IMG/VR virus record: IMGVR_UViG_3300037797_000117
Location: 32,001 to 96,000 of that record
DNA: 64,000 nucleotides
From: a virus
Strand: one strand, 5' to 3'
Numbering within the stretch: the stretch's first letter is position 1; each line of letters opens with the position of its first letter. A program made the translations under genes and the position numbers. Under the pieces are notes generated by a model. That model was given only the letters and a program-made list of their open reading frames with translations, did no database searches and had not been told where the DNA came from. This document shows, piece after piece, positions 1,754-50,591 of this stretch.

Positions 1754-4700
1754 ATGTACAGCGTTGGCACCGCATACCTCAGCGTTGTTCCTTCGTTCCG
1801 CAATATTGAGCGGGAGTTCCGTCAGGTCTCCGAGCGGCTCGGCCGTGAGGTAGATGCCGCGATCGCCCGGGCCATCCCGGAAGGTGTGCGGGAGGGTGCC
1901 GCCCGGGCGTCGGAAACGGCCGCGCGGGAAGGTGCCCGGTCCGGGCAGGCCTACGCCGGTGCGTGGCGCAACGCCATGGACCGGCACCTGCGCGGAATGA
2001 TGTCCCGCCTCGGCGACGACGCCCGCGACGAAATCAAGGACATCGCCAAGGACCTGGGCGAGCTCCGCGACGCGGTCATCAACGTCGACGTCGACTCCGA
2101 CTTCGCCATGTTGGAGTTCCGCCGCATCCGGGACCGGATCCGGGAGCTGCAACGCGAAGACCACACCATCGAGATGCACTTCAACCTCGCCGAGGTCATG
2201 CGCGAGGCGGAGCAGATCGAGCGGGCGTTGCGGGACAGCCGTTCGGAGATGGAACGGGCCCACGAGCAGGCCCTGTCCGACGACCAGCGCCGCGACGCCG
2301 ACCGGGCACGGCGGCAGCGTGAGCTCAACGAAAACATGCAGCGGTTCCTGCGGGACCAGAACCGCATGGAAGACGAGGCGTACCGGGAGAACGCCCGCCG
2401 CGACAACGATCGGGCACGGCGGCAGCGGGAACTGAACGAGGGCGCCCGCCGGTTCCTGATCGAGCAGCAGCGGATGCTGCGCGAGGCCTACGACGAGAAC
2501 GAGCGCCGCGACCGGGACATGCGCCGCCGCCTCGGTGGTGCCTACGGCGAGCAGGCGCAGCGGCGCACCACCGCGGCCCGCGACGCCATCCCCGACTTCA
2601 TGGCCCGCGATGTCCAGTCGCGGCTGCGGATGACCGGTGTCCAGGTGGAGCTGGCCCAGATCCGGGCCCAGTTCGACCGGCTCAGCAACCTCACCGTCGA
2701 CGTCGACATTCCCGCCGCCCAGTACCAGGCGGAGCTGGCAGCACTCATCGCCCGGCTGGAAGCGGTCGAGGCCAACGAGGTCGACATCGACATTCAGGCA
2801 CACACCCGCGCCGCGTTGGCAGAGGTCCGTGCGTTGACCGGGCACATGCGCCGGGCCGGCGACGACGCCGGCGACGCGTGGGGCGGGTCGTTCGTCCGGA
2901 ACATCCGCGAATCGGTGCGCCGGGTCGCCGCCACGATCTCCGACATTGAGATCGACGCGGACACCACCCCGTTCCAGCTCGCGTTGGGTGAGGTCCGGGC
3001 ACGCCTGCTGACGTTGGGCAACGTCCGCATCGGCGTCGACATGGACCTGGCCCAGTTCCTGGTCGAGGTCGAGGCAATCGAGCGGGAACTCGCCGATCTG
3101 GAACTCGACGGCGACGTCGATATCCACACCCGGCTGGAAGCCGCCGCGACCCGGGCCGGGCTGGTACAGCTTCACAACCAGATCAACCAGATCGACCGGG
3201 ACGACATCACCGTCAACGTCGACACCGACCGGGCCGTGTTCAGCCTGCGCAACTTCGCCGACAACGTCGGCATCTCGATGTCCCGGCTCGGCCTGCTCAT
3301 CTCGCTCGGTGCGTCGCTGGGTACCGCCATCGTCCCGGCCGCGGCAGCCGCGGCGGCGTCGATCTCTGCGATCGCAACGGCGGCGTCGGCGGCGGTGCTC
3401 GGCATCGGCGTGTTCGCGTTGGGCATCTTCGGCACGTTCAAAGCGATCGGCGCGCTCAACCAGTACCAGAAGGATGCCGACAAGTCAGCCCAGAACCTGT
3501 CGGCGTCGCAGTCCCGCGTCGCCGGCGCCATGGACCAGGTGGCAGGCGCGGCCGCCGGTGTCCGCTCGGCTGAGCGGAACCTGATCCGCGCGCAGAAAGA
3601 CGCCGTCGACTCGGTCCGGGACCTGGTCAGGGCCCGTGAGGAAGCCCGCCGGCAGCTCGAAGACATGAAGCTGGCGGTCAAGGACAACGCGTTGGCCCTG
3701 CGGCAGGCCCGCCTCGACGAGGCCGAAGCCAAGAAGGACCTGGACGCGGTTCTGGCCAACCCGCGGGCCAGTGAGGCCGACCGGGAACAGGCCCGCATCA
3801 CCTACGAGCAGCGGGTTCTTCAGATCGAGGAACTGAGCCTGCGGCAGGACCGGCTGTCCAAAGACGAGGAAGTGGCCCGGAAGAAAGGCATCGAAGGCAG
3901 CGACCAGGTCCAGGCCGCGCAGGAACGTATCGCGTCTGCGATCGAGGCCGTCGCCGACGCGCAGGGTTCGGTGGCGTCCAGCCACCGGTCGTTGGAAGCC
4001 GCCAACCGGGCATTGCAGCAGAGCTACGAGAAGACCGGTGTCGCCGGTGGCGACGCGTTGCGCAACATGCGTGAGGCCATGGATGCCCTGTCCCCGGCCG
4101 GGCAGCGGTTCGCGCTGTTCATCTTCTCCCTGAAGGACGAATTCAAGGGGCTCCAGGCCGCGGCTGAGGAAGGTCTGCTGCCCGGGTTGCAGCAGGCCAT
4201 CACGAACATGCTGCCGTACCTGGCTCCGTTGCAGAACCTGATCGGCCGGGTTGCGCAGGCGCTGGGCCGAGGGTTCGTCATGGCGACGGAACAGTTGAAG
4301 GACCCGGTGTGGCAGCGGTTCTTCGGCTACCTGTCGGCCACGGCCGTGCCGGTTCTCGAAGGAATGTTCACGTTCATGATGAACGTGGGCAAAGGCATTG
4401 CCGGTATTCTGCTGGGCCTGTCCGGGTTCAACGGGCCCATCGGCCAGGGCGTTCTGCAATGGTCTGAAGACTTCGCCGCGTGGGGGTCGACGCTCGACTC
4501 TAACCAGGGCTGGCAGAAATTCCTGCAATACGTCCGCGATTCGTGGCCGGAAGTCCGCGATTTCTTCGCCGGGCTGTGGGATTTCACGAAGAAGTTTGTT
4601 GCGGCCGCAGCGCCCATCGGTGAATGGGTGGTTGGTGCGTTCGCGAAGGTTTTCGAGTGGATGAACAAACTCGACACCGACACGTGGACGATCATCATCG

Positions 4701-12016: not shown

Positions 12017-12919
12017 ATGGACAACGACAGCACGATGTGTGAACGCGAAATCGAGACCCAACCGGTCGGTGTCGACGCCGTTGTCCAGGCGGGCCGGTTC
12101 GGGGTGTCCGTTGCCAACCCGAACCAGGCCCGCATCCCCGACGGCCTGTGGTGGCTGTGGCTACGCCTCAAAGGGTTGGAGCCGGCAACCCAGCTCGGCG
12201 GCATCTACGCCGCCAAGTCCGGCTACCACGGCACCCGCGATGAGAACCGCAAGCGGTGGCCGGGGAACTACTCGATCCGTGAAGCTGAGGACCTCGGCGG
12301 GCCGGGTGACAAGGCCGCCGCCCTGGACTGGACGTTTCCCGACGCGCAGGCCGGCCGGTACGGCACCATCTCGAAGTACACCAAGCGGCTTCTGGTGTCG
12401 GGGAAGGACTCCAACGATCCGCGGCTGGACGGGCTCCGCGAGTTCTACGGCCAGGCCGACACCGACCGGTACGTCGAAGGTTGGGACTGCCGGCACCTGG
12501 TCGACGTCACCTCCGACGCGTCCCACCTGTGGCACCTGCATTTCAGCTTTGACCGGGACAAGGTCAACGACATGAAGGTGATGGAGGCGTTGCTGTCGGT
12601 CCTGACCGGGGAGGCGTTGGTGTCGTGGAAGGCCCGCACCGGCGGTGCCTCCCCCGCCCCGCAGCCGACCGGCCCGCCGGCCGGGGCAACCGGTCACCGG
12701 CCGGGGTCGCGGACGTTGCGGCTGACCAGTCCGCAGATGACCGGCGCCGACGTGACGTTCGTGCAGCGGTGGATCGGGCCGGAACGGGCAGGCGCCGCTG
12801 ACGGGATCTACGGCCCTGCCACGGTGGCCGGGGTGAAGTGGTACCAGCGGATGCGTGGCCTCGCCGTCGACGGCGAGGTCGGCCCGAAGACGTGGGCCCA
12901 TCTCGGGGTCAAGGCCTGA
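12017..12919 (+). CDS. Endolysin: Zn-peptidase (M15-like) plus C-terminal peptidoglycan-binding domain
   Basis: GYH...AALDW...SHLWHLHFS; MTGADVTFVQR...DGIYGPAT...VDGEVGPKTW. Confidence 0.88.
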   Translation: MDNDSTMCEREIETQPVGVDAVVQAGRFGVSVANPNQARIPDGLWWLWLRLKGLEPATQLGGIYAAKSGYHGTRDENRKRWPGNYSIREAEDLGGPGDKAAALDWTFPDAQAGRYGTISKYTKRLLVSGKDSNDPRLDGLREFYGQADTDRYVEGWDCRHLVDVTSDASHLWHLHFSFDRDKVNDMKVMEALLSVLTGEALVSWKARTGGASPAPQPTGPPAGATGHRPGSRTLRLTSPQMTGADVTFVQRWIGPERAGAADGIYGPATVAGVKWYQRMRGLAVDGEVGPKTWAHLGVKA

Positions 12920-17298: not shown

Positions 17299-17328
17299 TT
17301 GTACCGTACCCGGGGTACCGAGTATTGT
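17299..17328. promoter_or_regulatory. Regulon promoter/operator copy 1 (divergent)
   Basis: + strand TTGTAC-cgtacccggggtaccgag-TATTGT; overlapping - strand TGGACA-N17-TACGGT. Confidence 0.75.
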
Positions 17329-35061: not shown

Positions 35062-35784
35062 ATGATCAACCGTGTCCGCGGCGCTGTCGCCGTGGCGAAA
35101 GGCCGATGGCAGTGGCGCAAGGCTCGCAGCCTCGCCGACCTGGCCAACCTGCGAGCCGACCAGATCGCCCGCAACCTGCCCGGCGTGGGACGCCGGCCAC
35201 GGACTGCCTACCTGAACGGGGACGGCACGGTGCGGCTCGGCCCACCGGCGACCGCTGTCGAGCAGTCCACGAAGACCATGTACTCGGCGCTGGTCGCGCT
35301 CGGCCGGACCGGTGTGGTCGTCCACGACTGGCACCCGGGAACGTTCACCGAGGCCACCGGCGAGCACCCGGCCATGGCGACCAGGGCCTGCGTGGCCGGG
35401 TTCGCCGACGACGAAACGAAGGACTGGCTCGACAGCCTGCTGTACTACGCCGGCAAGGAGCCGGGCGCCACCGGCTACGAACTCGGATCCGTCCTCGACC
35501 TGTGGGCCCCCGGTCAAGAAGATTACGAACGGTGGGACGGGGTCGACGCCCACCGCTCCCGCGGTCACTGGGTCGAGCGCATCGACGACACCCCGACGGT
35601 CCGCATCGGCGACCAGATGACCGCCCGCGAGGTGTACCGGGCGTTCCCCACCCGCGGGCGTGTGCAGCGGGAGTTGCGGAAGGCGTGGCTGATCACGATC
35701 GTCGCACCGACGTGGGGCGACAACACGATGTTCGCCGACCTGCTCCCGCTGTTGGCCGGGGCCCGGCGCCCGGCTGAGGTCTAG
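35062..35784 (+). CDS. DUF6919-like protein (paralog of 39606-40283)
   Basis: WRKARSLADL, RACVAGFAD, AWLITIVAPTWGDN. Confidence 0.6.
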   Translation: MINRVRGAVAVAKGRWQWRKARSLADLANLRADQIARNLPGVGRRPRTAYLNGDGTVRLGPPATAVEQSTKTMYSALVALGRTGVVVHDWHPGTFTEATGEHPAMATRACVAGFADDETKDWLDSLLYYAGKEPGATGYELGSVLDLWAPGQEDYERWDGVDAHRSRGHWVERIDDTPTVRIGDQMTAREVYRAFPTRGRVQRELRKAWLITIVAPTWGDNTMFADLLPLLAGARRPAEV

Positions 35785-35862
35785 CGCCCGGTTTCGGTCC
35801 AGGAAGCGCCGGGCCCGACCCCCTGGGGACGTTGGGCCCGGCGCTTTCTTATGGTCCACATG

Positions 35863-35892
35863 TTGCGCCGTTCCCGGGGTACGCGTTACGGT
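35863..35892 (+). promoter_or_regulatory. Regulon promoter/operator copy 9
   Basis: TTGCGC-cgttcccggggtacgcgt-TACGGT, preceded by a terminator hairpin at about 35803-35847. Confidence 0.8.
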
Positions 35893-35930
35893 TGCTGTAT
35901 TCCCCGAACGGCCAATGCCAGGAGTTCACC

Positions 35931-36338
35931 ATGACCTCCCAGACGAAGACCCCCCGACGGGTGGGGTTCCTCCACGACCCCACCGGCGAACACCACGACG
36001 GCATGCCCACCTACCCGTGGGGCCTTGAACCCGGCGAAGACGGAGCCCCACCGGCCAACCTCGCCACCCGCCGCCAACTCGCCAAGATGGGCCTACGCCC
36101 CAACGGCCAGGAACACGTCGCCGAAATCCGCAAACTCGCCTACGGCTGGCTCGTAGCCAAGCTCTACCCGATCGCCGGGGCCGCACCGAAACGGCCCATG
36201 ACCGACGCCATGTGGCGGGCCGTCAACACCGCCGCCCGCTCCCGGTACCGGTGCAACACCTGCCCCCGCACCGACCTGGACTACATCCCGAAGCAAACCT
36301 CCCCGGTCTGGGGACGCTGCCACCACTGCTACCCCTGA
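35931..36338 (+). CDS. RRQRL-motif zinc-binding protein (typical of actinomycete plasmids/AICEs)
   Basis: PTYPW...LATRRQLAKMGLRPNGQ...AKLY...PKRPMT...RCNTC...RCHHC. Confidence 0.8.
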   Translation: MTSQTKTPRRVGFLHDPTGEHHDGMPTYPWGLEPGEDGAPPANLATRRQLAKMGLRPNGQEHVAEIRKLAYGWLVAKLYPIAGAAPKRPMTDAMWRAVNTAARSRYRCNTCPRTDLDYIPKQTSPVWGRCHHCYP

Positions 36339-39605: not shown

Positions 39606-40283
39606 GTGAACCGGACCGACCGCGAACGGTGGCGCACCGCCACCACCCTGCCCGCGCTCGGCGAGCTGTACGCCGAATTCCTCGAAGGCCACCTGCCCGA
39701 CGCCCCCGGCTGGTACGGCAGTGGGCCCGACCCGGAGACCGAGCCGCTGGTGCCGACCCTGGCCGCCCTGAACCGGGCCGGGTACGTCACCGTCGAGTCG
39801 CAACCCGGCGACTACGCCAGCTCCCCCCGCGGCGACCGGGTGTGGCGGCAACGCGCCGGCGTCGAGGGGTTCGCCGACTCCCTCACCTTGGAATGGCTGG
39901 CGGCGGCCCTGGCCGGCACCGACTACCTGATGATCGTGCAGACGACCCAGGCCCGCGGTGGCAGCGCCGACCCGCGCGAGATCAACCTCAACCAGGGCAT
40001 CGCCGTCACGACCCGCAACGGCCAGCCGGTCACCTGGTACGGCCGGCAGTTGACCCGCCGGTTCATGCGGGCCGAACTGTTCGGCCGGCACCTGTGCGGT
40101 GCCGCCCTGGATATTCTCGCCGCCGCGTGGCACGTCACCATCGTCGACCCGGTGTGGGACCGCAACACCCTGTGGCCGGTACTGGAACGCGCGACCAACC
40201 CGCAGCCGCTGACGGCGGCGGGCCGCGATTACCACCTGGCCCGGCTGGCCCCGCTCGACGCGGCAGCCTGCCCTGTTTCGTAG
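39606..40283 (+). CDS. DUF6919-like protein
   Basis: LAALNRAGYVTVESQPG, QRAGVEGFAD, AWHVTIVDPVWDRN. Confidence 0.65.
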   Translation: MNRTDRERWRTATTLPALGELYAEFLEGHLPDAPGWYGSGPDPETEPLVPTLAALNRAGYVTVESQPGDYASSPRGDRVWRQRAGVEGFADSLTLEWLAAALAGTDYLMIVQTTQARGGSADPREINLNQGIAVTTRNGQPVTWYGRQLTRRFMRAELFGRHLCGAALDILAAAWHVTIVDPVWDRNTLWPVLERATNPQPLTAAGRDYHLARLAPLDAAACPVS

Positions 40284-40856: not shown

Positions 40857-40896
40857 GTGAGGGTAGGTCCACCCACACACCGTGCGGAGGCAGGAC

Positions 40897-41559
40897 ATGG
40901 TCACCACCCTCGATCGGACGTTCCACCACCCGATCAGCCTGACCTGCTCCGACCACCGCAGCATGTCTCGATGGCCTACCTACGCGGCGGGTCTCGGCGA
41001 GCTGCTCAGGAGCTGTTGGGCCTGCGACGCGACGTGGAGGAACCTCCAGGACCCGAACGGGGACTGCTGGGCCCGTTCCCACCTCGACTGGCCACTCGAC
41101 GAGGTCATCGCGGGCACTGCCCACCACGAGGCTGCACACACCGTTGCCGTGCTCCTCGCCGGGCAGCGGGTGGACGAGGTCGTCGTGCGCCGGGATCCGG
41201 ACGTAGACGTCTCGACCGACCCATCCGGGTGGGTCAGATGGAATTCGACGCGGACCAAGGTCGACGTGATGGACCACCTGGTCGTGTGCTGGGCCGGGCA
41301 GATGGCAGGCCTTCGGTACCTGGAGGAGATCGGCCGGGACACCCCAACCGACCGGTTCGACATCATCCACGGTTCGTCCGACGACGCGGGCCAGGCCTAC
41401 AAGCTGGCCGCCGACCATGGCCTGCCGGAAGACGCCGGGATGCGCGCGGCCCGGCTGATCGTGCGAAGCGAGTGGGCCACGATCGCCCGGCTGGCCCGGG
41501 AGCTGTGCACCCGCGGCCGGCTGGACGACACCGAGGTGCGGGCCATCGTCGGGCTCTGA
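40897..41559 (+). CDS. Standalone Zn metalloprotease (M41/FtsH protease-domain-like)
   Basis: TAHHEAAH (HExxH), VCWAGQMA, GSSDD. Confidence 0.7.
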   Translation: MVTTLDRTFHHPISLTCSDHRSMSRWPTYAAGLGELLRSCWACDATWRNLQDPNGDCWARSHLDWPLDEVIAGTAHHEAAHTVAVLLAGQRVDEVVVRRDPDVDVSTDPSGWVRWNSTRTKVDVMDHLVVCWAGQMAGLRYLEEIGRDTPTDRFDIIHGSSDDAGQAYKLAADHGLPEDAGMRAARLIVRSEWATIARLARELCTRGRLDDTEVRAIVGL

Positions 41560-41695: not shown

Positions 41696-42385
41696 ATGAC
41701 CACCAGCACCGCTACCCAGCAGGACAGCACCGCCGGAAACTTCACCTACTACATCGCCAGGACCATCGTTCTCGGCTTCGCCATCGGCTGTCTCTACTTC
41801 TCCTTCGACCACACCATCCACCTGGCCCACATGCTCGGCGCCACCGGCACCCAGGCCTACACCGCCCCCGCCTTCGTCGACGGCTTCATGTTGCTTGGCC
41901 GCCTCGGCATGAGCGCCAAGTTCGACGCCGCCACCAACAAGATCGGCCGCCGGATGATGGTCGTCGGCGCCCTGATCTCCCTCGCCGCGAACATCGCCGC
42001 CGGCCAGACCCTCGGCGGCCGCATTCTCGGCGCGGCCGTGGTGATCGGCTTCCTCGTGACCGAGTGGTACGCCGGCAAGCTCAAGCCCGCTCCCGCCCCG
42101 GCCCCGACCGTCACCCCCGACGAGCAGGCCGCGATCGACCTGGCCGCCAAGCGTTCCGCCGCCGCCCGCAAGGCCGCCGAAACCCGCAAGGCGAACCAGG
42201 CCGCCAAGCCCACCCGCAAGCCCCGCACCCGCAAGCCCGCCGCCGCCAAGACCCACCCGGTCGCCGCGATCCAGGCCCTGACCCCCCAGCAGATCAACGA
42301 CGCCCCGGTCTCCCCCGCCCCGTGGATGGGCCCGAGCCTGGTCATCGCGAAGACCACCGCTGACATCCGGAACCTGACCAACTAA
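41696..42385 (+). CDS. DUF2637/Spd-like 4-TM plasmid spread protein with Lys/Ala tail
   Basis: SFDH..HLA..LGA...PAFVDG...GALISLAANIAA; basic KAAETRK tail. Confidence 0.7.
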   Translation: MTTSTATQQDSTAGNFTYYIARTIVLGFAIGCLYFSFDHTIHLAHMLGATGTQAYTAPAFVDGFMLLGRLGMSAKFDAATNKIGRRMMVVGALISLAANIAAGQTLGGRILGAAVVIGFLVTEWYAGKLKPAPAPAPTVTPDEQAAIDLAAKRSAAARKAAETRKANQAAKPTRKPRTRKPAAAKTHPVAAIQALTPQQINDAPVSPAPWMGPSLVIAKTTADIRNLTN

Positions 42386-42456
42386 CCCAGCACCACCCCG
42401 GGGTCGGCACCCGCCGGCCCCGGGACTTCCCCCCGTTCCGAGAGGACACGCCCGAC

Positions 42457-42642
42457 ATGAACGAGGACAACGACCGCAGGCCGACCGCAGAGCAGACGAT
42501 CCGGATGGCAGCCCTTATCGCCGCCGCTGAGATTGCCCCCTCCGGCCTCGGGATCGCCCGCCTGACCGACACCGCGAGCATCCTGGCCGCGTGGATCACA
42601 ACCGGCCAACTTCCCCGGCCCGAGCCGGGCACCTACTACTAG
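42457..42642 (+). CDS. Small hypothetical protein
   Basis: RBS GAGGA. Confidence 0.55.
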   Translation: MNEDNDRRPTAEQTIRMAALIAAAEIAPSGLGIARLTDTASILAAWITTGQLPRPEPGTYY

Positions 42643-42670
42643 ACCGGACCGCACCCCGAAGGAGCCCACG

Positions 42671-42994
42671 ATGACCACCACGACCGCCACGACCTACGGT
42701 GCCGAGTTCGGATTCACCGCCCAGACCGACGGGATCAGGGCGTTCGTGAACGACGCCGGCTACACCGCCGACGAGGCCGGCGCCGTGTTCGATGCCTTGC
42801 TGGCCGCGTTCCGTTCCGTGGTCGACGGACGGCTCCCGGACGGGGTGTTGTGGCAGCCGATCACGAGCGAGTTCATCCACCCGGTCGACGTCGACCTGCC
42901 CGACCGGGACGAGATGACCGAGCTGTTCCGGGAGGCGTGGGCCGCGACCGCAGATCGGATCGAGGCGATCGAGTCGGAGGTTCTTGGCGCCTGA
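42671..42994 (+). CDS. Hypothetical protein
   Basis: RBS AAGGAG; terminator hairpin at 42995-43042. Confidence 0.65.
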   Translation: MTTTTATTYGAEFGFTAQTDGIRAFVNDAGYTADEAGAVFDALLAAFRSVVDGRLPDGVLWQPITSEFIHPVDVDLPDRDEMTELFREAWAATADRIEAIESEVLGA

Positions 42995-43051
42995 ACACAC
43001 AGCGACGCCCCCCCGGGATCCCGGGGGGCCGTCGCTGTGTGTAACGAGGAT

Positions 43052-43179
43052 CGTCCGTACGTACGGACGGACGTACGGTTCCACCAAAAACAAGGGAGGG
43101 GGGTCTTACGCGAGCCCAGGGCCCCCTCTGAGGGGGGCGTACGTCCGTACGTACGTACGTCCGTACGGACAACCGTACG
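43052..43179. repeat. CGTACG/GTCCGTAC repeat cluster (candidate cis-acting transfer locus)
   Basis: Nine CGTACG in about 125 bp; GTCCGTAC x3 forward and x2 reverse. Confidence 0.7.
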
Positions 43180-43237
43180 ATACTCACGGTGACATGTCGG
43201 TGGGCGGGGGCATGCCGTCCGACAACCGTGGGAAGCG

Positions 43238-43549
43238 CTATTCCTGAACTTCGTTGCCGCCGTCCGCATGCCCGTCGACCGGGTCTGTCTGGTCCGCGCG
43301 GCTGCGTTCCTGCCCGGCCAACTGGGCCTCCAGCTCGCGGCGTTTCGCCAGAGCAGCAGAGCGGGGGATCCGCGCCCACCGCTTGTCACCCAGCCGGACG
43401 TGCAGCAGTTCTGGCGGGTCGCTGCCGATCATCGCGATGACCTGCCGGCGGGTGGTGCCGTAGCCGATGACCGCCGCCGCCTCCCCTGTAGTCAGCATTT
43501 CGCCTTCCCACGCGGGATGGTCCTGGTCGGGTACCGGCGTATCCGTCAT
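43238..43549 (-). CDS. Excisionase-like HTH regulator, divergent from the transfer operon
   Basis: MLTTGEAAAVIG...RQVIAMI...WARIPRSA. Confidence 0.7.
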   Translation of the reverse strand: MTDTPVPDQDHPAWEGEMLTTGEAAAVIGYGTTRRQVIAMIGSDPPELLHVRLGDKRWARIPRSAALAKRRELEAQLAGQERSRADQTDPVDGHADGGNEVQE

Positions 43550-43644
43550 AAGCACGTTTGCCCCCTTCGTTCCTGGTGTGGCCGGTCGCCGGTTCGCGTC
43601 CGGCCGACCGCACACACGTCCACGATCAACTGTCCCCCACCGGT

Positions 43645-43715
43645 ATGACAAAGGTACCGAAGTTACCCGACATACCGAGTGACCAAAGCTGCCAAAGTTT
43701 CCGACAGTATGTCAT
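43645..43715. promoter_or_regulatory. Tandem 9-bp repeats in the divergent intergenic region
   Basis: CAAAGGTAC-CGAAGTTAC-CCGACA and CAAAGCTGC-CAAAGTTTC-CGACA, bracketed by ATGACA/TGTCAT. Confidence 0.55.
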
Positions 43716-43724
43716 GATGAGCGC

Positions 43725-45368
43725 ATGGAGCGGAACACCGAACACGGAGCGCCGAAGAGTGCCGAATCGGCCCCCGGCGGTACCGCAGTACCCGCGGTAC
43801 CGGTGACCCCCGGTACCGCGGTACCGGTACCGCCCGCGGCCCGGCCGGTACCGGCACACCGCGCCCCGGTACCGACGACCGACACCGGCGGTACCAGTAC
43901 CGACAGCGGTACCGGTACCGCCGGCCGGTACCGCTGGTACCACCGGCTCGGCCGCCGGTACCGCCACACCGGTACCGGTACTGCCACCGCCGGTACCAGC
44001 CTCGCGGTACCGGCCGACGGGGCAGTACAGGTCTTCGGTACCGGTACCGGCGACCTGGTACCGGCCGCCGGGTACCGGTACAACCCGGTCGGTACCGAAG
44101 CAACGATCCGGGCCCACCTGCGCGACCTGCCGGTGCCGGCGGCCGGTACCGCCCGTCGGCACCGCAAGGCGGCGACCGGCACCACCACCGAGCCGGTGAC
44201 CTTCCTCGGCCGGATCTTCAAAGCGATCAGCACCATCTTCGAGATCGCCCCCCTGGCCGCGCCCCTGTTCGCCTCCGGCTGGTTCACCTACCTCGTCGTC
44301 ACCGACGAGTACGGCCTGAGCCAGCCGTGGCCGATCGCGGTGACCATGGTGCTCGGCCTCGAAGGTGTCGTCTGGACCCTCGCCAAGCTGTACGAGCAGC
44401 GGCTGGTCGCCGGCCACTCCACCATCGCCGACCGGCTCGGAATCCTGTTCGTCGTCAGCGCCATCGGCAGCCTCATCTACTGGCACTCCATGGTCGAGGC
44501 CAAGGCCCGCACCGCCGAGGCCAGGGCCGCCGCCGTGCTGGCCGGCATCGACCCGGACTTCGTCGTCGCCGCCAAGGCCGACTGGCGCGGTGCCGCCGTC
44601 GCCGCGTCCATGAGCGCGCTCGGCGTGTTCGTGTACGGGCGTAGGGCCAGGTGGAACCGCCGTGTCGAGCTGGAAGCCGAAGGCCGCGTCGACATGCAGG
44701 CCCTGCGGATCGGTCTCTGGCAGTGGATCGTCTCCCCCTGGGAGTCGACCTGGTCGTTCCGCCACGGCATGAAGTACCGGATCAAGCGCCCCACGGACGC
44801 GGTACGGGACTGGCGGCTGTGGAAGGAGATGGGCAAGCCCAAGCTGTGGCCGCCGGCCATGACCGCCGGTACCACCGGCACCAGCACCGACGAGACGGTA
44901 CCGGTACCGGCGTGGATGCTCGCCGAGCTACTCGGCAACGCCGCCGGTACCGGTACCGGCGGGGACCTGGTCGGTACCGGGTACCCGGTACCGACCTCGC
45001 CCGGCCCGGCCGGTACCGGTACCGGCGGTACGAGCTACGTACCGGTACCGCCGGCGAGCGTTGGCGGTACCGCGACCCGTACCGCCTCCGGCCCGGCCGG
45101 TACCGGAGCGCGCGGTCCCGGCGGTACCGGTACCGGTACCGCCGGGGACTCGGTGACGATCAGCCAGTACCGGCAGCGCAACGCCCACCGTCTCGACAAG
45201 ATCCGTAAGGTGCTCGACGGTACCGACGGCCGGCCGGATTGGCGGCTCGCCCCGGAAGCCGACCTGACCCTGTCCGTCATCACGGCCGCCGGCGGGTTCA
45301 GCAACCGCACCGACGCCGCCCAGTGCAAGTCGGTCCTCCTGGCCGACCGGCAGCGGGAAGGCGGATAA
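43725..45368 (+). CDS. Spd-like 4-TM membrane protein with GGTACC-encoded low-complexity arms and possible C-terminal HTH
   Basis: Central TM helices; GT/VP/RY repeats on both sides; first gene of the transfer operon. Confidence 0.7.
   Translation: MERNTEHGAPKSAESAPGGTAVPAVPVTPGTAVPVPPAARPVPAHRAPVPTTDTGGTSTDSGTGTAGRYRWYHRLGRRYRHTGTGTATAGTSLAVPADGAVQVFGTGTGDLVPAAGYRYNPVGTEATIRAHLRDLPVPAAGTARRHRKAATGTTTEPVTFLGRIFKAISTIFEIAPLAAPLFASGWFTYLVVTDEYGLSQPWPIAVTMVLGLEGVVWTLAKLYEQRLVAGHSTIADRLGILFVVSAIGSLIYWHSMVEAKARTAEARAAAVLAGIDPDFVVAAKADWRGAAVAASMSALGVFVYGRRARWNRRVELEAEGRVDMQALRIGLWQWIVSPWESTWSFRHGMKYRIKRPTDAVRDWRLWKEMGKPKLWPPAMTAGTTGTSTDETVPVPAWMLAELLGNAAGTGTGGDLVGTGYPVPTSPGPAGTGTGGTSYVPVPPASVGGTATRTASGPAGTGARGPGGTGTGTAGDSVTISQYRQRNAHRLDKIRKVLDGTDGRPDWRLAPEADLTLSVITAAGGFSNRTDAAQCKSVLLADRQREGG
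43779..44150. repeat. GGTACC array 1 (about 22 copies)
   Basis: Hand count of the palindromic hexamer. Confidence 0.9.
44868..45224. repeat. GGTACC array 2 (about 17 copies)
   Basis: Hand count of the palindromic hexamer. Confidence 0.9.
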
Positions 45369-45506
45369 AGATCGGCTAGCTGAACGGTTCCACGCCCATA
45401 GACGTGACCCTGAGCATGATCGATGCTTTACCTGGCACCACACGTACCAACTAGCACCAACCTCCCCAAACAGCCCAGATCCCGACAAGAGGAAGACGCG
45501 ACCCCC

Positions 45507-46094
45507 ATGAAAATGCTGACGGCGCAGACCCGGGCCGAATGGCACCGAGGCAACCCCCTCCCCGAACACCCGGTCCGGTCCAAGCCGGCGAGGCCGACGT
45601 TCAGGTTCCTCGACACCCGGGCGTGGCGGCTCCACACCCGCGGCGTGTGGCTCCTCGTCGCCGCGTGCCTGCCCGCCCTGTTCCTGGTGGCGTTCTGGGT
45701 GACCGCCGACGAACTCGGCATGATCGGCTGGGGCATGACCACCGCGGCGGTCCTGATGGTCGCCGTGGCCACCCTGTCCCTGTGGGCCGCCCGCGCCGTC
45801 GAGAACGCCACCCGCAACCGGGCCGACCTGAACGCCGCCGCCGAGGACGCGTTCCTGGCCTTCGACGGTGTCGGACCGGACCTTCCCCCGCCGGCCGCGG
45901 CGGCCGCCGCACCCGTCCCGACCGGTCCGCTGCCGACGCCCGCACCGTGGGTCGGCCCGAACATCGTCTGGCCGACCCGGCAGGAAGACATCCACGAGTC
46001 CGGCCGCGAATACGACGACTACGCGGAGCAGGTCACGGCGGAGGTCGCCGACCCGGCGCCCGCCGCCGGCCCGGCCCGACCCACCCGCCTGTAA
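45507..46094 (+). CDS. 2-TM membrane protein, transfer operon
   Basis: RBS GAGGA; two hydrophobic helices. Confidence 0.65.
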   Translation: MKMLTAQTRAEWHRGNPLPEHPVRSKPARPTFRFLDTRAWRLHTRGVWLLVAACLPALFLVAFWVTADELGMIGWGMTTAAVLMVAVATLSLWAARAVENATRNRADLNAAAEDAFLAFDGVGPDLPPPAAAAAAPVPTGPLPTPAPWVGPNIVWPTRQEDIHESGREYDDYAEQVTAEVADPAPAAGPARPTRL

Positions 46095-46106
46095 CCCGAC
46101 CAAGAG

Positions 46107-47597
46107 GTGAATATCGTGAGCACCCCTCAGAACGTTCCGACCCAGCCGGCCGGGCACGGGCCCTACCCGGTGTACCCGGTCGTTCCGGGTGCACCCGTGC
46201 CCGGCACCCCGGGCACGCCCGGAGCCCGGCCCCGCGGGGATGCGGCGTCCCGGATCCAGCGGATGCCGCTCGGGCCGCTGGTGGCCTCGGCTGGCCTGAT
46301 CAGCCTGATCGTCGTCCTGGTCCTGTTCGAGCTGTTCCCGCCGATGATCGCCCTGATGATTCTGTGTGTCCTGATCCTGCTGGCCATCGGGATCTGGTAC
46401 CTGCGTCAGCGCCGCGCCGCCCGCCGCCGCCCCGGCCCCGCCGGTGCGCGCGGCGGGGCTGCCGGGCCGGGTACCCGCCGCGGCGGGAACCCGATCAGCC
46501 GCATGCTCGGCGGCCGCGGTGCCCGCCCCGGTGGTGCCGGCGGCCGCCCGGGCGGTGGCGGGCTGCGCGGGATGTTGCCCCGCGCGCTCGGCGGAACCCG
46601 GGGACGCCCCGGCGGCGGCACCCCCGGCGGTGCGCGGGCTGCGGGTGGCCGCCCCGGCGGCAAACTCAACCCGCTCAACTGGGGTCGCAACCGGGCAGCC
46701 GGTCGCGGCCCTACCACCGGTCCGGGCGGCAGCAAGGCCCCCGGCCGGTTCAACCCGTTCAGCCGGAGCCGCGGCGCGGCCGGCCCGGGTGGTGGACGGC
46801 CCGGGGGCGGCGCTCCCGGCGGTGGGGGACTCGGCAGGTTCAACCCGTTGAACCGGTTCCGTAGCCGGGGAGCTGGCGGCCAGCCGGCGGGGGCCAAGCC
46901 CGGCGGTGGATCATCCAACTCGCCAGGAAGATCCCCCGGTGGTAGCGGCGGCGGCCTGTTCGGGGGCAAACTGAATCCATCCAACTGGAAACGGAACAAC
47001 ACGACCGGGCGCGGCCCGGCCGGCGGGGCCTCCCCCACCGGCGGAGGCCCGGCCGGCGGCGGCGGGGGGCCGGCTCGGGGGTCCGCTGGCGGGGGACCGC
47101 CACCAGGCCCCACCCTGCGCCGCGGTGGTGGCGGCCCCCCAACGCCGCCCCCCGCCCCCCGGCCGGGCGGTTGGTCCCGACCGGGGGGTGGCGCTACCCG
47201 GCGGGCACCGGATCCGCCCGCAAGCGGCGGCGGTGGTTCAGGAAGCGGAGATGGAGGCAGTTCGGACATGGGCATTGAACTTTCCGACGACAAGGTCAGC
47301 CTCATCAAGTGGGCACTCGGGTTGAAGGCCGCCGCCGCCGCGGGCGAGGCCGAGGCCAAAAAGTGGCGTGCTCTTGCCATGCAGGCGGAACAGGAGCAGC
47401 CGACCGAAACGGCGTTGATCGAGCGGCTCCGCGCGCAGGCCACCCGCTACACGGCGGCGTTCGAGCGGATGAGCAAGTGGTACGAAACCATCAAAAAGCA
47501 GAACGAGCCCGACTTCAGGGCCTACTTCACGCCGCGGCACGGGTCGCTGCATCGGGAGGCCCGGTCGGATACCCGGCGGGCGTTCGACGGCAACTAG
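46107..47597 (+). CDS. 2-TM protein with Gly/Arg-rich linker and C-terminal 109-aa helical domain
   Basis: TM hairpin; repeated G(K/R)(L/F)NP motifs; C-terminus paralogous to the next gene. Confidence 0.7.
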   Translation: MNIVSTPQNVPTQPAGHGPYPVYPVVPGAPVPGTPGTPGARPRGDAASRIQRMPLGPLVASAGLISLIVVLVLFELFPPMIALMILCVLILLAIGIWYLRQRRAARRRPGPAGARGGAAGPGTRRGGNPISRMLGGRGARPGGAGGRPGGGGLRGMLPRALGGTRGRPGGGTPGGARAAGGRPGGKLNPLNWGRNRAAGRGPTTGPGGSKAPGRFNPFSRSRGAAGPGGGRPGGGAPGGGGLGRFNPLNRFRSRGAGGQPAGAKPGGGSSNSPGRSPGGSGGGLFGGKLNPSNWKRNNTTGRGPAGGASPTGGGPAGGGGGPARGSAGGGPPPGPTLRRGGGGPPTPPPAPRPGGWSRPGGGATRRAPDPPASGGGGSGSGDGGSSDMGIELSDDKVSLIKWALGLKAAAAAGEAEAKKWRALAMQAEQEQPTETALIERLRAQATRYTAAFERMSKWYETIKKQNEPDFRAYFTPRHGSLHREARSDTRRAFDGN

Positions 47598-47616
47598 AGC
47601 AGAAAGGTGGCCCACC

Positions 47617-47946
47617 GTGGGAACACACAGCTACGACGACCAGACCAGCACCTACAAGTGGATCAACGGCCTGAAGGGGCGGGCGGGTGGCGCTAACGTG
47701 CTCGCCCGGGGCGTCCAGATCCTCGCCCACCAGGCGCAGGACCGCCAGCCGGTAACGCCGGCGTTCGCCGCCGAAGTTGCTGCCGTATCGGCCCTCCTGG
47801 GCAAGGCATCACTCGAAGCGGGCGAACTTTTCAAGGCTGCCCGGGCAGCTCACCGCCGTGACGTTGAACGGGTGGAGAACTACCGCAAGAGCCCGGCGGT
47901 AGAGACCAACGCCGACGTCACCGCAGCCAGGCGCGACGGCATGTAG
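47617..47946 (+). CDS. Small helical transfer-associated protein (109 aa)
   Basis: RBS GAAAGG; directly upstream of traB. Confidence 0.7.
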   Translation: MGTHSYDDQTSTYKWINGLKGRAGGANVLARGVQILAHQAQDRQPVTPAFAAEVAAVSALLGKASLEAGELFKAARAAHRRDVERVENYRKSPAVETNADVTAARRDGM

Positions 47947-48016
47947 CTGTCGGTGGCCGGGCCCACCCCCGGCCACCGACCCCCGCACCACCGAGACGTT
48001 GAGGGAGGCGAGACGG

Positions 48017-50233
48017 ATGCCGATGCAGTACAACGCCACCATGTCCGGCGGCACGGCATGGGGGGCGGTCAACGGGTTCCTTACCGCCTTCGCCGTGGCC
48101 CTGCTCGGGTCCAACTGGAATCGCCTCGACCGCAACTGGGGGTGGTGGCACGACCGGTTCGGCCCGTTCCCGATCTGGTTCCCGATGGCTGTCGCCGCCG
48201 CCGCCGCGGTCGCGGCGGTCCTGGTCGGCAACCACCGCGGCACCACCGCTTCCAACATCCGCTTCCGCGCCGGGTGCTGGCTCGGCGCGGGCGTGTGGAC
48301 CACAGTCACCATCCACTACGGCTGGTCCGTGATCGGGTTCGTCATCCTTACCGTCGCCGCGGTTCTTGCGGGAACCCTCGCCCCCGCGTTCGGAACCTTC
48401 ACTCCGCCTCCGCAGCCGTCCATGGACAGCGGAAGCGAGATCACCAGACTCACCCGTTTGATCAACAAGTTTGCCAACATCAAGCCCGAAGACCAGCCGA
48501 CCTTGCAGAAGGTCCGCGACTGGGAACCGAAGGACGCCGGCGTCACCTACAAGGCAGTCGGCGCTCCCGGCACCGACTTCAGTTGGCGCACGCTGCGGGA
48601 GATCCAGATCAGGTTGGCGGCCGGGCTCGGCCTGCCGGAAGGGTGCCCGGTCCAGTCAGAGCCGGCCGGCACCACCCAGAACGAAGCCCTTGTGATGGTT
48701 TCCACCCGGAACTACCTGGCCGAAGACGTCTGGTACCCGATGGACATGACGCCGCTAACCGTCACGGAAGACTTCCCCGTCGGCCGGTTCCTTGACTCGG
48801 CACCGACCGACGTCGAGTTGCGCCAGGCCGCCGGTGTCGTGGTAGGCCAGCGCGGCGGCGGTAAGACCATGCTGCTTCACAACATCACCGCCAGCTTGAT
48901 TCGCATGCCGGACGTCGTGGTGTGGCACATCGACCTCAACGGTGGTGGCCTGTCCGCGCCGTGGACCATGCCGGTAGCGATGGGCGAGGTGCAGTACCCC
49001 GGCGTCGACTGGGTCGCGTCAACGCCCGAAGAGGCGCTGATCATGGCTGAGGTGGCGCTGGCGATCGCGAAGGACCGCAAGCGACGCTACGCCGGCGAGC
49101 TGGTACGCAGCGACGACGACGTGCTCCCCGTCCGACCCGGCCTACCGAAGATCCTCATCATTGTCGACGAGAGTGCCGAGGTCACCGGCGAAGACGCCAA
49201 GAAGAAGGCCCAGGCGGTGTCGGCGGCGTTGCAGGAGGTGCAGCGGATCGGCCGCGCCATGTGCGTCGACGTCTTCTTCTCCGTCCTGCGTGGCACCGGC
49301 GATCTGCTGCCGGCCGGAATCAAGAAGCAGGCCGTCCTGTCGTTCTGCACCCGGGTGCGCGACGAGTCGGAACTGGCGTTCGTGTTCGACTGGAAGTCGG
49401 GCCTGGACCACGAGGCGCTCAAGGAGCCCGGCCAGATGTACATGCAGCGCGGCTCCGGCGCGGTCAAGATGTTCAAGGGGTTCCGATTGAAGCCCAGCAT
49501 GATGATCGCCATCGTGCATGCCATGCAGCATGTCCGGGCCCAGGCCCAACTCGACGGCCCCGCGTTGCGGGTCGCCGGTGACGCCTACCTCCAGCGGTGG
49601 CAGCGACCCGACGCAGTTGCCTACCTGGCGGGGCTCCGCGGCGAAGACGGCCCCGACCCCGGCGACGGTGGGGGCGGCGGCTACGGCGGCCCACCCGACC
49701 CGGACCCGGACCCGTATTCGTCCGGTGGCGACCCCGGGGACGACGCGCTCGCCGAGTTCGACGCCGCCATCCGCGAGATCGAGGCGGGGGAGAAGCCGGA
49801 ATCGACCCGGCCGGCGGCACCGGTGCGGGAGGCAGCACCGGCAGCACCGGCCGGGTCGATTCCCGACGACGTGGTCCAGCGGATGCTGAACCAGATCGAG
49901 GCGCTCCCCACGACGGAGGCGCCGCTGGTAGACCCGGCCCCGGCGGCGACGACGCTGGCCGGCCCGGGCCTGCCGGGCGGCCCGGATCAGGCGTCGACCC
50001 GTGGCCCCGTCCCCCGGCGGGCGTTCATCGAGCAGCTACTCGAGCGGGCCGGTCGGGACGGGATGCGGACGGGGGACATTGTGCGGCTTGTGATGGCGTC
50101 GGGGCTGAAGGTTCGGCGCGAGGCCACGATCAAGGAGGACCTACAGGCTCTCCTTGACGCGGGGGTCATCACGCGGAACAACCCGGACGGCGGCGAGACG
50201 CACGGCATGTACTGGCTGAGCCGGCTGGTCTGA
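48017..50233 (+). CDS. traB: TraB-like FtsK/SpoIIIE conjugative DNA translocase
   Basis: N-terminal TM helices; Walker A GQRGGGKT; VWHIDLNGG; Walker B ILIIVDESAE; R.GRA motif; C-terminal wHTH. Confidence 0.85.
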   Translation: MPMQYNATMSGGTAWGAVNGFLTAFAVALLGSNWNRLDRNWGWWHDRFGPFPIWFPMAVAAAAAVAAVLVGNHRGTTASNIRFRAGCWLGAGVWTTVTIHYGWSVIGFVILTVAAVLAGTLAPAFGTFTPPPQPSMDSGSEITRLTRLINKFANIKPEDQPTLQKVRDWEPKDAGVTYKAVGAPGTDFSWRTLREIQIRLAAGLGLPEGCPVQSEPAGTTQNEALVMVSTRNYLAEDVWYPMDMTPLTVTEDFPVGRFLDSAPTDVELRQAAGVVVGQRGGGKTMLLHNITASLIRMPDVVVWHIDLNGGGLSAPWTMPVAMGEVQYPGVDWVASTPEEALIMAEVALAIAKDRKRRYAGELVRSDDDVLPVRPGLPKILIIVDESAEVTGEDAKKKAQAVSAALQEVQRIGRAMCVDVFFSVLRGTGDLLPAGIKKQAVLSFCTRVRDESELAFVFDWKSGLDHEALKEPGQMYMQRGSGAVKMFKGFRLKPSMMIAIVHAMQHVRAQAQLDGPALRVAGDAYLQRWQRPDAVAYLAGLRGEDGPDPGDGGGGGYGGPPDPDPDPYSSGGDPGDDALAEFDAAIREIEAGEKPESTRPAAPVREAAPAAPAGSIPDDVVQRMLNQIEALPTTEAPLVDPAPAATTLAGPGLPGGPDQASTRGPVPRRAFIEQLLERAGRDGMRTGDIVRLVMASGLKVRREATIKEDLQALLDAGVITRNNPDGGETHGMYWLSRLV

Positions 50234-50294: not shown

Positions 50295-50591
50295 TCAGGC
50301 GGCGTAACGCGACGGGTAGACGTCGACGTCGTCGTCGTAGTCGTGGTAGTCCGTCGGGGGTGTGTCTTCGCCGTCGGGCCGGTACCAGCCGTTGGCGGCG
50401 TTACGGGCCTGTGCACCGGTGGTGGTCGGCCAGTCGCGGGCGTCGTTGACGCCGTCTTCGACGAGGGCGAAGACCTGGTCTTCGTCGATGCCGACGGACA
50501 GAGCGGTCGCGGCAGCGGCACGGAGCATGCGCGCCGCGCGGTCCATGTCTGTCTGCCAGGCGTCCTTCATGTTCTCCACGATCCCATACAC
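50295..50591 (-). CDS. Hypothetical protein
   Basis: Acidic small ORF convergent on traB. Confidence 0.55.
   Translation of the reverse strand: MYGIVENMKDAWQTDMDRAARMLRAAAATALSVGIDEDQVFALVEDGVNDARDWPTTTGAQARNAANGWYRPDGEDTPPTDYHDYDDDVDVYPSRYAA

Follow-up and report, generated by a model that had tools for sequence, protein, structure and literature searches.

In Streptomyces plasmids, the TraB/Tra translocases (pSVH1 TraB, pIJ101 Tra) are composed of a membrane anchor, an FtsK-like motor and a C-terminal winged helix. The classical clt consists of 4 to 9 direct repeats of 8 bp. The TraB/Tra operons contain small membrane proteins, a divergent regulator and a cluster of short repeats adjoining the gene, and a role in spreading phage DNA has been proposed for the Spd homologues found on actinophages (PMC4447253). 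In the case of pZL12 (GQ919031), transfer was reported to need the tra gene as well as two genes next to it (PMC3583192). The same domain order and a similar operon were found in the window analysed here, a stretch of 64,000 nucleotides (positions 32,001 to 96,000 of IMG/VR record IMGVR_UViG_3300037797_000117) belonging to a complete 166-kb siphophage, probably of a filamentous actinomycete (IMG/VR class DTR; CheckV completeness 100%). Whereas the TraB/Tra systems are plasmid-borne, that of the window is carried by a phage.

Organization of the module

Genes were called on the basis of GC3 and transmembrane (TM) segments were predicted. Between 43.2 and 50.3 kb of the window, a divergent small regulator-like gene precedes a tight operon of five genes, separated by gaps of 13-55 bp. 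The first three encode membrane proteins, the fourth a helical protein of 109 aa and the last an ATPase of 744 aa. The layout that the initial annotation had described is thus confirmed. The features of the module and its neighbours are as follows.

35832-36338, + strand: RRQRL-motif zinc-binding protein, 168 aa (NCBIfam NF041638, 82.8 bits for a cut-off of 65; RRQL motif, two CxxC pairs)
41696-42385, + strand: DUF2637-family membrane protein, 229 aa (3 predicted TM; basic Ala/Lys/Arg-rich tail)
43052-43180, no strand: cluster of CGTACG / GTCCGTACG repeats (family D7) on both sides of a hairpin, where the divergent gene has its 3' end (motif cluster)
43238-43555, - strand: divergent 105-aa protein, putative small DNA-binding operon regulator (gene call; conserved position)
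43725-45368, + strand: operon gene 1, 547-aa membrane protein with a 4-TM core (TM prediction)
45423-46094, + strand: operon gene 2, 223 aa, 2 TM (TM prediction; 35% identity with the homologue of the related locus L051)
46107-47597, + strand: operon gene 3, 496 aa, 1 TM (TM prediction; partner-domain profile)
47617-47946, + strand: operon gene 4, free-standing 109-aa partner domain, helical (profile)
47999-50233, + strand: operon gene 5, TraB-like translocase, 744 aa (motifs, model, Foldseek)
50295-50591, - strand: small convergent gene, 98 aa (position conserved in relatives)

The RRQRL protein, of a type typical of mobile elements in actinomycetes, lies at the periphery of the module: the zinc-finger gene of the initial annotation is real, but lies outside the region to which it had been assigned. 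The DUF2637 gene alone scores 18.7 bits against PF10935, below the cut-off of 22.8, and its homologues at 53-68% identity do carry PF10935, in agreement with the earlier DUF2637-like assignment; L029, L051 and L093 retain the gene, likewise upstream of the module. The divergent 105-aa protein, read as an HTH regulator in the initial annotation, is not of the GntR type and has no match in Pfam or NCBIfam, and relatives possess a reverse gene of 94-119 aa at its position. Likewise, a gene of 78-130 aa is found between the ATPase gene and dnaB in all close relatives, as for the 98-aa convergent gene.

In operon gene 1, Gly/Thr/Pro/Val-rich regions, whose sequence is shaped by an embedded DNA motif, flank the TM core; homologues with 40-78% identity occur in related phages. 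For the operon membrane proteins, sequence and profile comparisons gave no demonstrable homology with Spd proteins, the similarity between gene 1 and pIJ101 SpdB being weak (blastp 1e-3, hhalign probability 23%). Operon gene 3 continues with a Gly/Arg/Pro-rich linker of ~300 aa and ends with a C-terminal partner domain (about 47268-47594). Its counterpart in relatives is called as a gene of 447-516 aa.

The ATPase and its partner domain

In the ATPase, 4 TM helices are followed by an FtsK/TcpA-like motor, which a disordered linker joins to a C-terminal winged helix. A TTG start gives 744 aa and the ATG at 48017 gives 738 aa; the Walker A and B motifs are GQRGGGKT and ILIIVDES. The AF2 model (pLDDT 84.6) displays four N-terminal helices, the motor domain and a C-terminal three-helix-plus-wing domain. 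Its Foldseek matches include TcpA and the motor of FtsK (about 5e-16), and the C-terminal domain folded alone (pLDDT 86) matched Fur/MarR-type winged helices with TM scores of 0.6-0.7. The TraB-like architecture first read from the letters is thus seen in motifs, model and structural matches. In sequence, however, the family is distinct from TraB/Tra and remote from the classical TraB, since the score against Pfam FtsK_SpoIIIE (PF01580) reaches only 12 bits, versus 38.8 bits for pIJ101 Tra.

By tblastn, the ATPase was matched in pFQ12 (1e-48), a Thermobifida plasmid, pSQ10 and pAGRA3207_2. P1312 (4e-51), Hiyaa (1e-44) and pZL12.71c (2e-13) match as well, and many prophages carry the family too. 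Outside phages, its closest relatives are the large ATPases encoded by small plasmids of actinomycetes, together with pZL12.71c. In a FastTree phylogeny, plasmid and phage rows interleave and the pZL12 ATPase forms a long branch far from the clade of the window. The named hosts, which are those of the relatives, are all mycelial actinomycetes (63/63 genome loci with a named genus, 9/9 phage and 34/34 plasmid records); this restriction is confounded with phylogeny because all named hosts are related.

Of the 107 loci, 104 have the partner domain, a helical domain of ~105 aa, directly upstream of the ATPase. The source phage possesses two copies, the C-terminus of operon gene 3 and the free 109-aa protein. 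The domain is common to pZL12.72c and to plasmid proteins of ~560 aa, and Hiyaa gp101, left out of the profile, scores 2e-25. As judged from these sequences, the ATPase and the partner domain upstream of it constitute a conserved two-part cassette of small plasmids, pZL12, isolated actinophages and prophages of mycelial actinomycetes.

Arrays of short motifs

Operon gene 1 contains 39 GGTACC hexamers, distributed over the three reading frames as 23/11/5. They form two halves, and the ~700-bp TM core between them holds no copy.

43779-44150, no strand: GGTACC array, left half: 22 copies with an extended consensus of about CCGGTACCGG (candidate for a clt-like recognition array)
44868-45224, no strand: GGTACC array, right half: 17 copies (motif count)

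No 6-mer cluster of the 166-kb genome is stronger than the left half (p about 1e-42 to 1e-80), and L093, a relative with 76% nucleotide identity, retains 22+18 copies. At this position relatives carry other motifs, among them GGGCCC, CGGAAC and CGCTAC, with copies in every frame and in either orientation. A motif cluster was detected at p<1e-6 in 48 of the 61 loci; 29 are centred 0-4 kb upstream of the ATPase, 6 are just 3' of it and none lies 6-10 kb upstream. In pSQ10, a 9-copy CGTTAC array (4 direct, 5 inverted) comes right after the ATPase stop codon. These element-specific arrays beside the module look like clt, and the 39-site array may be the loading signal of a DNA pump.

The array motif tracks the type of the ATPase C-terminal domain: L051 has the motif and recognition helix of L060 though its motor is closer to that of the window. 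The covariation is imperfect, however, as the window, L058 and L072 have GGTACC in common with different C-terminal domains. Another protein may therefore read the array. Furthermore, the array motif resembles the operator of the phage regulon (GTACCC-N-GGGTAC), and the sites could accordingly serve as a sink for a regulator instead. A role in host takeover or exclusion would make use of this likeness: the ATPase, with the catalytically dead soluble paralogue that exists, would hamper host FtsK or the transfer of a resident plasmid or AICE, or exclude superinfecting DNA, and the array would be a repressor titration sink or a consequence of low-complexity protein, being located in coding sequence for Gly/Thr/Pro-rich stretches. 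We consider such a role improbable. The Walker motifs are intact and the partner cassette is kept across more than 100 loci, the array sites fall in three frames and both orientations, and arrays of unrelated motifs stand beside the ATPase in elements devoid of the source phage's regulon, one of them in a plasmid intergenic region.

Genomic context

The contig encodes TerL, portal, protease, MCP, TMP, minor tail proteins and endolysin, which confirms the tail and lysis genes of the initial annotation. It also has 37 tRNAs, together with a DnaB, an SSB and a clamp of its own. The module is directly upstream of dnaB and ssb, a position conserved in relatives, and the synteny of DUF6919 genes, module, small reverse gene, DnaB and SSB recurs in independent assemblies of 94-166 kb. 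From this gene order, the module is a fixed part of the early/replication arm in the family of the source phage, with its own putative divergent regulator.

Relatives of the module are also found on plasmids and in chromosomes, as would be expected of a passenger AICE or plasmid insertion without role in the phage. This explanation, like that of a chimeric assembly, is contradicted and highly implausible: at least five independent assemblies, with ATPases that differ by 50-57%, display an identical synteny, the GC content is uniform, copies of the regulon operator are located on both sides of the module, and no integrase, rep gene or att-like repeat bracketing it was found. The earlier view that the module is not an inserted AICE is thus upheld. 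A single borderline tyrosine recombinase is present ~28 kb away.

The initial annotation had proposed a conjugative phage-plasmid, in which a circular plasmid prophage would be conjugated from donor to recipient via the module, as in pZL12, besides its lytic cycle. pZL12, described as a plasmid-phage from experiments, indeed has homologues of the ATPase and of the gene next to it, the borderline recombinase is present and the contig does assemble as a circle. However, the latter relies on a 28-bp end overlap, which fits a plasmid and a phage genome with circular permutation or terminal redundancy equally well. Relaxase, VirD4, ParA, ParB and serine recombinase were not found in the phage, whereas pZL12 and pSLE1 have both ParA and ParB, and the 37 tRNAs and own replication genes are typical of large virulent phages. 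Moreover, the module is syntenic in related phages of 135-166 kb, and phage Hiyaa carries it too, where no integrase, serine recombinase or ParB could be detected. The phage-plasmid life style is therefore unlikely.

The conserved place upstream of dnaB and ssb, the FtsK-like motor and the self-recognition that a phage-specific array would give are also compatible with the handling of DNA within one mycelium, either its segregation (for instance at sporulation septa, across which phage DNA would be cleared or loaded to give phage-carrying spores) or the resolution and positioning of replicating concatemers beside the replication genes. This function is doubtful, since 16-22 kb plasmids, which need transfer above all, are served by the same cassette, and the accompanying membrane proteins, with their multiple TM segments and long linkers, point to an apparatus that spans the envelope rather than to simple segregation.

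Proposed role of the module

We give a probability of about one in two to the reading that the module represents the dsDNA transfer apparatus of actinomycete plasmids in a phage-resident form and would spread phage DNA through the mycelium. The membrane-anchored ATPase would assemble into a ring at the cross-walls of hyphae or at their sites of contact, and its winged helix would load on the GGTACC array of operon gene 1, acting as a clt-like site. The motor would then pump replicating phage dsDNA into the adjoining compartment or hypha through a passage formed or gated by the three membrane proteins with the tethered and free partner domains. If so, the phage genome would spread through its multicellular host without virions, and this spread would need no plasmid prophage state.

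Comparison with known systems

pZL12 (pZL12.71c-73c) resembles the source phage in that a tailed-phage genome encodes an FtsK-like ATPase of the membrane (26% identity, E 2e-13), with the same ~105-aa domain in the preceding gene and membrane-protein genes upstream. It differs by its size (90 kb versus 166 kb), its ParA/ParB and plasmid state, where the source phage has tRNAs and lacks par genes, and its divergent GntR regulator, pZL12.80; no significant motif array was found at its locus. Compared with TraB/Tra systems, the window possesses the invariant partner domain, absent from the annotated genes of pIJ101, and its array differs from the classical clt by being made of palindromic hexamers inside a coding gene.

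The plasmids pSQ10 (Nocardiopsis), pAGRA3207_2 (Actinomadura) and pFQ12 (Frankia) encode ATPases of the same family (30-35% identity) which, as in the window, end an operon facing a divergent regulator, and the array of pSQ10 is likewise a hexamer array near the module. In these plasmids of 16-22 kb, the regulators are GntR, virion genes are absent and the partner domain is fused to the C-terminus of the preceding ~560-aa protein, but not also free. The same ATPase-plus-partner cassette is present in plaque-forming phages, namely Hiyaa (gp101-102), Galactica, Keanu, Spocter and the Thermobifida phage P1312 (P1312_063/064), whose genomes are smaller (60-83 kb) and whose ATPases share 31-36% identity with that of the window. 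In P1312, dnaB is downstream as in the window and an ACCGGT array lies just 3' of the ATPase. The annotation of these phage genes goes no further than FtsK-like and assigns them no function.

The operon lies in a complete siphophage genome

The record that contains the window comprises 166,387 bp (68.9% GC) and its first 28 bases recur at its end; it is classified in IMG/VR as a virus with direct terminal repeats and has a CheckV completeness estimate of 100%. Genes for the large terminase, portal, head protease and major head protein were identified with PHROG profiles at genome 13-22 kb, and the same profiles highlighted a tape measure protein, minor tail proteins and an endolysin in the window. 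Tail and lysis genes are indeed carried by the same contig as the putative transfer module, as stated in the initial annotation. The replication genes identified (DnaB and a sliding-clamp fusion) are of phage type. Given its head and packaging, tail, lysis, tRNA, DnaB and clamp genes and the completeness calls, the record is a complete large siphophage. All three DnaN domains of the clamp (Pfam E 1e-8 to 1e-13) are embedded in a 1350-aa protein encoded on the minus strand in another stretch of the record (L031:40-4092, genome coordinates). About 37 tRNA genes, one of them called with a two-base 'anticodon', lie on one strand with irregular spacing in two further stretches (L034:2735-19920 and L035:94-3674; genome ~118.7-139.7 kb).

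Genes were called by GC3 and transmembrane (TM) segments by hydropathy analysis.

Features of the window (coordinates, strand for the genes of the module, description)
1886-6415, tape measure protein, 1509 aa (PHROG profile)
12017-12919, endolysin (PHROG profile)
41696-42385, DUF2637-family protein with three TM segments and a basic tail, upstream of the module
43238-43555, minus, divergent gene, 105 aa
43725-45368, plus, 547-aa protein with a four-TM core
45423-46094, plus, 223-aa two-TM protein
46107-47597, plus, 496-aa protein with one TM helix, a Gly/Arg/Pro-rich linker of ~300 residues and a helical C-terminal domain
47617-47946, plus, 109-aa helical protein
47999-50233, plus, ATPase, 744 aa
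50791-52161, DnaB

The divergent gene is separated by a 170-bp region from five plus-strand genes with gaps of 13-55 bp. Gene calls, hydropathy and AlphaFold/Foldseek analysis agree with the proposed operon of three membrane proteins, a small helical protein and a TraB-like ATPase. The divergent 105-aa protein, a putative HTH regulator in the initial annotation, gave no match to GntR or any other family, whereas the plasmid relatives do have a GntR regulator. The RRQRL zinc protein named in the initial annotation is real (NF041638, 82.8 bits) but is encoded at 35832-36338 and not within 41696-50233. The product of the 41696-42385 gene reaches 18.7 bits alone with the DUF2637 profile (PF10935), below the cut-off of 22.8; six homologues (46-68% identity) carry PF10935, one of them being named a DUF2637 protein, and through these homologues it can be assigned to the family by sequence. 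Similarity of the 547-aa protein to SpdB of pIJ101 is weak (blastp 1e-3 over 79 aa; hhalign probability 23%), and the DUF2637 profile matches SpdB with a probability of 0.2%. Since no profile relation was found among DUF2637, the 547-aa protein and SpdB, the term 'Spd-like' stays an analogy. Literature searches on DUF2637 and on the Streptomyces phage Hiyaa gave nothing of use.

A scan for generic sigma-70 promoters and terminators revealed nothing beyond chance. The palindrome GTACCC-N-GGGTAC (up to 2 mismatches) occurs 19 times between window positions 17306 and 61164 against 4.3 expected, mostly in intergenic promoter-like contexts, with one copy ahead of the DUF2637 gene (41615) and another ahead of dnaB (50680). 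It is absent from the module's own divergent promoter region, and its half-site resembles the GGTACC motif described below. At the left edge of the module, nine CGTACG / GTCCGTACG repeats (43052-43180) are grouped in two patches that flank a GC-rich hairpin, in the gap between the 3' ends of two genes that converge there. Two DUF6919 paralogues are encoded at 35062-35784 (E 2e-11) and 39606-40283 (E 8e-43), and every related large contig has a DUF6919 gene at the equivalent place ahead of the module. The 225-aa protein encoded at 40882-41559 has a HEAAH metalloprotease-like motif and an N-terminal Cys/His cluster, with only a weak Peptidase_M50B match.

The module is not a recent insertion

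Homologues of the ATPase (42-54% identity) were found on metagenomic contigs of 165.5, 163, 135.7 and 94 kb. These contigs share the gene order of the window: DUF6919 genes, the DUF2637 gene, a reverse small gene, a membrane gene of ~500 aa, genes of ~160, ~450-516 and ~110 aa, the ATPase gene, a small reverse gene, dnaB and ssb. The GC content is even across the window, the phage promoter-operator motif is present on both flanks of the module, and no att-like repeats bracket it. Taken together, these results exclude a chimeric assembly or a recent AICE insertion, in agreement with the earlier view that the module does not look like an inserted AICE. In one relative (L043:4361-6997, 878 aa), an intein with a LAGLIDADG endonuclease interrupts the dnaB gene downstream of the module.

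Circularity, par genes and an integrase had been named as points to verify in the full contig. Besides the 28-base end repeat, no match to PF02195 or PF13614 (ParA/ParB) and no serine recombinase, MOB-type relaxase or VirD4 was found across the complete 166-kb record. A single tyrosine recombinase, borderline, lies ~28 kb away from the module. An AICE was also considered on its own terms and rejected, as this distant recombinase is the nearest one and no repeats bracket the module.

The ATPase is a membrane-anchored motor with a predicted winged helix

The Walker A (GQRGGGKT) and Walker B (ILIIVDES) motifs of the ATPase are invariant in 41 homologues, and the protein is an FtsK/HerA-superfamily motor with both motifs intact, like the TraB/Tra translocases. 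The AlphaFold model built on the 41 homologues (pLDDT 84.6) has four N-terminal membrane helices followed by a well-ordered motor and, after a disordered linker, a three-helix-plus-wing domain at the C-terminus. The anchor is formed by four long helices (residues 18-131, pLDDT 85-92) and hydropathy agrees with this membrane association. With Foldseek, the motor matches the pCW3 coupling protein TcpA and FtsK motor domains (E ~5e-16 over ~390 columns). The C-terminal domain (residues 670-744, three helices and a wing) is retained when the last 85 residues are folded alone (pLDDT 86); nearly all of its 50 best Foldseek matches are DNA-binding winged-helix proteins, mostly of Fur/MarR types (TM 0.6-0.7), with E values no better than 1e-3. 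A winged helix as in TraB/Tra is thus predicted by the model. The ATPase scores 12.3 bits with the FtsK_SpoIIIE profile PF01580, below the cut-off of 24, as do the pZL12.71c and P1312_063 proteins; pIJ101 Tra scores 38.8 bits. The match of the ATPase to phrog_31069 is 2.9e-72.

Outside the window, on the opposite strand in the late arm (L031:11349-12512, minus strand, genome coordinates), a lone gene encodes a soluble motor paralogue of 387 aa with 33% identity to residues 246-547 of the ATPase. Its Walker A lysine and Walker B Asp-Glu are lost (CQSNAGGT, IVVEKG), and it might serve the translocase ring as a regulatory or poison subunit.

Plasmids and phages of mycelial actinomycetes share the cassette

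Relatives of the ATPase in isolated phages (25-36% identity) are found in the Streptomyces phages Hiyaa, Galactica, Spocter and Keanu, the Thermobifida phage P1312, the Saccharomonospora phage PIS 136 and the plasmid-phage pZL12. Plasmid relatives include pFQ12 (Frankia, 1e-48), pSQ10 (Nocardiopsis), pAGRA3207_2 (Actinomadura) and many Streptomyces plasmids. Searched against phages with megablast, the module gave no match; viral contigs gave none in a single-protein scan and were matched in an alignment-based scan. A FastTree phylogeny was carried out on 66 sequences, including a random choice of 22 from the 59 genome rows, and 14 of the 43 metagenome rows. It groups the window within a well-supported clade of ten metagenomic sequences; proteins from plasmids and from phages interleave, clades track host family, and pIJ101 Tra forms a long outgroup branch. 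Five Streptomyces prophage-like loci (L014, L025, L012, L150 and L152) have the ATPase within much longer ORFs of 1216-1572 aa, which may be fusions to the partner protein; in L014, L025 and L150 the C-terminal part is similar to the canonical FtsK gamma domain (LQRKLRI...).

All-against-all BLAST revealed a helical domain of ~105 aa common to the C-terminus of the 496-aa protein and the whole 109-aa protein. This partner domain is also present at the C-termini of plasmid proteins of ~560 aa, in P1312_064 and in part of pZL12.72c, and its profile recovers Hiyaa gp101, which had been excluded from it, at 2e-25. In 104 of the 107 retrieved loci that extend 1.5 kb or more upstream, it directly precedes the ATPase, so that partner domain and ATPase make up a fixed cassette shared by plasmids and phages. 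Two tandem copies are found in the window and in close relatives of the phage. A further phage-plasmid common gene adjoins the cassette: Hiyaa gp103 (L094:8896-9381) is 51% identical to the DUF3307 gene product of pAGRA3207_2 (L091:4666-5112).

The small plasmids (16-22 kb) have a divergent GntR regulator facing an operon whose last two genes encode the ~560-aa protein and the ATPase. By sequence comparison, two components of the phage module are thus shown to be homologous to those of the dsDNA transfer modules of actinomycete plasmids, and the operon layout is shared. A function in host interference appears improbable.

The carriers of the cassette include Hiyaa, a plaque-forming isolate with no detectable integrase, serine recombinase or ParB, as well as P1312, which has an integrase, and pZL12, which has ParA/ParB; the cassette is therefore found across life styles. 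The initial proposal of a true conjugative phage-plasmid, for which pZL12 offers a precedent, is unlikely here: the complete record has no ParA/ParB and nothing points to a plasmid state of the phage.

All 63 genus-named loci from one-genome-per-species bacterial assemblies belong to mycelial actinomycetes (among them Streptomyces, Kitasatospora, Micromonospora, Streptosporangium, Nonomuraea, Nocardiopsis, Actinosynnema and Saccharothrix), as do the phage and plasmid matches. This distribution agrees with a role tied to hyphal growth, phylogeny and the use of a single peptide pattern in the scan being confounding factors. Intracellular segregation or spore loading is a rather unlikely alternative.

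Element-specific motif arrays accompany the translocase gene

The 547-aa gene contains 39 of the 138 GGTACC sites of the genome, 22 and 17 copies on either side of the TM core and 2.8-4.2 kb upstream of the ATPase. No other k-mer cluster in the 166 kb comes close to this array in strength. The copies are distributed 23/11/5 over the reading frames and are translated as Gly-Thr, Val-Pro or x-Tyr-x. In a relative whose version of this gene is 76% identical at the nucleotide level, 22 + 18 copies are retained, most of them at different positions. More distant relatives have, at the equivalent place, GGGCCC (L029), CGGAAC (L051, L060), GGTACC (L058, L072), CGCTAC, CGTGAA or other motifs, in both orientations and all frames; the short contigs of the closest relatives (L041-L043), which end just upstream of the partner genes, stand outside this comparison. 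A motif cluster at p<1e-6 was detected in 48 of 61 non-redundant loci with 10-kb flanks, its centre lying 0-4 kb upstream of the ATPase start in 29, just past the 3' end in 6 and 6-10 kb upstream in 0.

The plasmid pSQ10 has nine CGTTAC copies, four direct and five inverted and 12-13 bp apart, starting four bases past the ATPase stop codon (L090:10560-10720). The position right after the translocase gene is the classical position of clt, the cis-acting repeat site bound by TraB. Because the cluster holds all the copies in the 11-kb locus, it is likely to be the clt of that plasmid.

The motif type tracks the C-terminal domain type in several groups. L051 and L060 share their motif and the recognition-helix signature RRQTVxE, yet the L051 motor is nearer to that of the window (43% vs 32.5% identity). 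The correlation is incomplete, the window, L058 and L072 having GGTACC but differing C-termini. A mere protein repeat was rejected as the origin of the GGTACC array, since the copies occupy three frames, their number is kept at 76% nucleotide identity and non-coding plasmid DNA has comparable arrays. As a DNA signal, the arrays clearly override protein-coding constraints. The GGTACC array may be a replication origin made of iterons, but this would leave unexplained the linkage between array and ATPase across unrelated replicons. In our reading, the arrays are candidate sites for loading of the translocase.

Discussion

The pump, loaded on the array, would move phage DNA across cross-walls or between hyphae. 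We tentatively propose, with a probability of roughly 35%, that tailed phages of filamentous actinomycetes, including some without lysogeny or plasmid functions, shift replicating phage DNA between hyphal compartments without virions. Their tools would be a TraB-like pump of plasmid origin, an obligate helper domain and 20-40 element-specific motifs, which would be loading sites set in three frames of a membrane-protein gene and determine transfer specificity.

Such movement would be a virion-independent infection route in multicellular bacteria and would change the view of plaque formation, phage defence and gene flow in Streptomyces-like organisms. Two leads follow: the invariant ATPase-plus-partner cassette, and the element-specific arrays as possible clt sites for mobilising actinomycete DNA.

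pZL12 is a known plasmid-phage with a tra locus. Its layout is that of the small plasmids, a GntR gene facing an operon that ends in the ATPase gene; pZL12.71c is 26% identical to the ATPase of the window (E 2e-13) and the partner domain matches pZL12.72c. In a citing paper (PMC3583192), transfer of pZL12 is reported to require the tra gene and two genes next to it. Spd homologues on actinophages have already been suggested to spread phage DNA (PMC4447253); new here are the full module as a core feature of a phage family with very large genomes, the invariant partner domain and the large element-specific arrays inside coding sequence. If the module does move phage DNA between hyphal compartments, the boundary between phages and conjugative elements would be blurred beyond the single case of pZL12, and the module would be a bacterial counterpart of the movement proteins of plant viruses.
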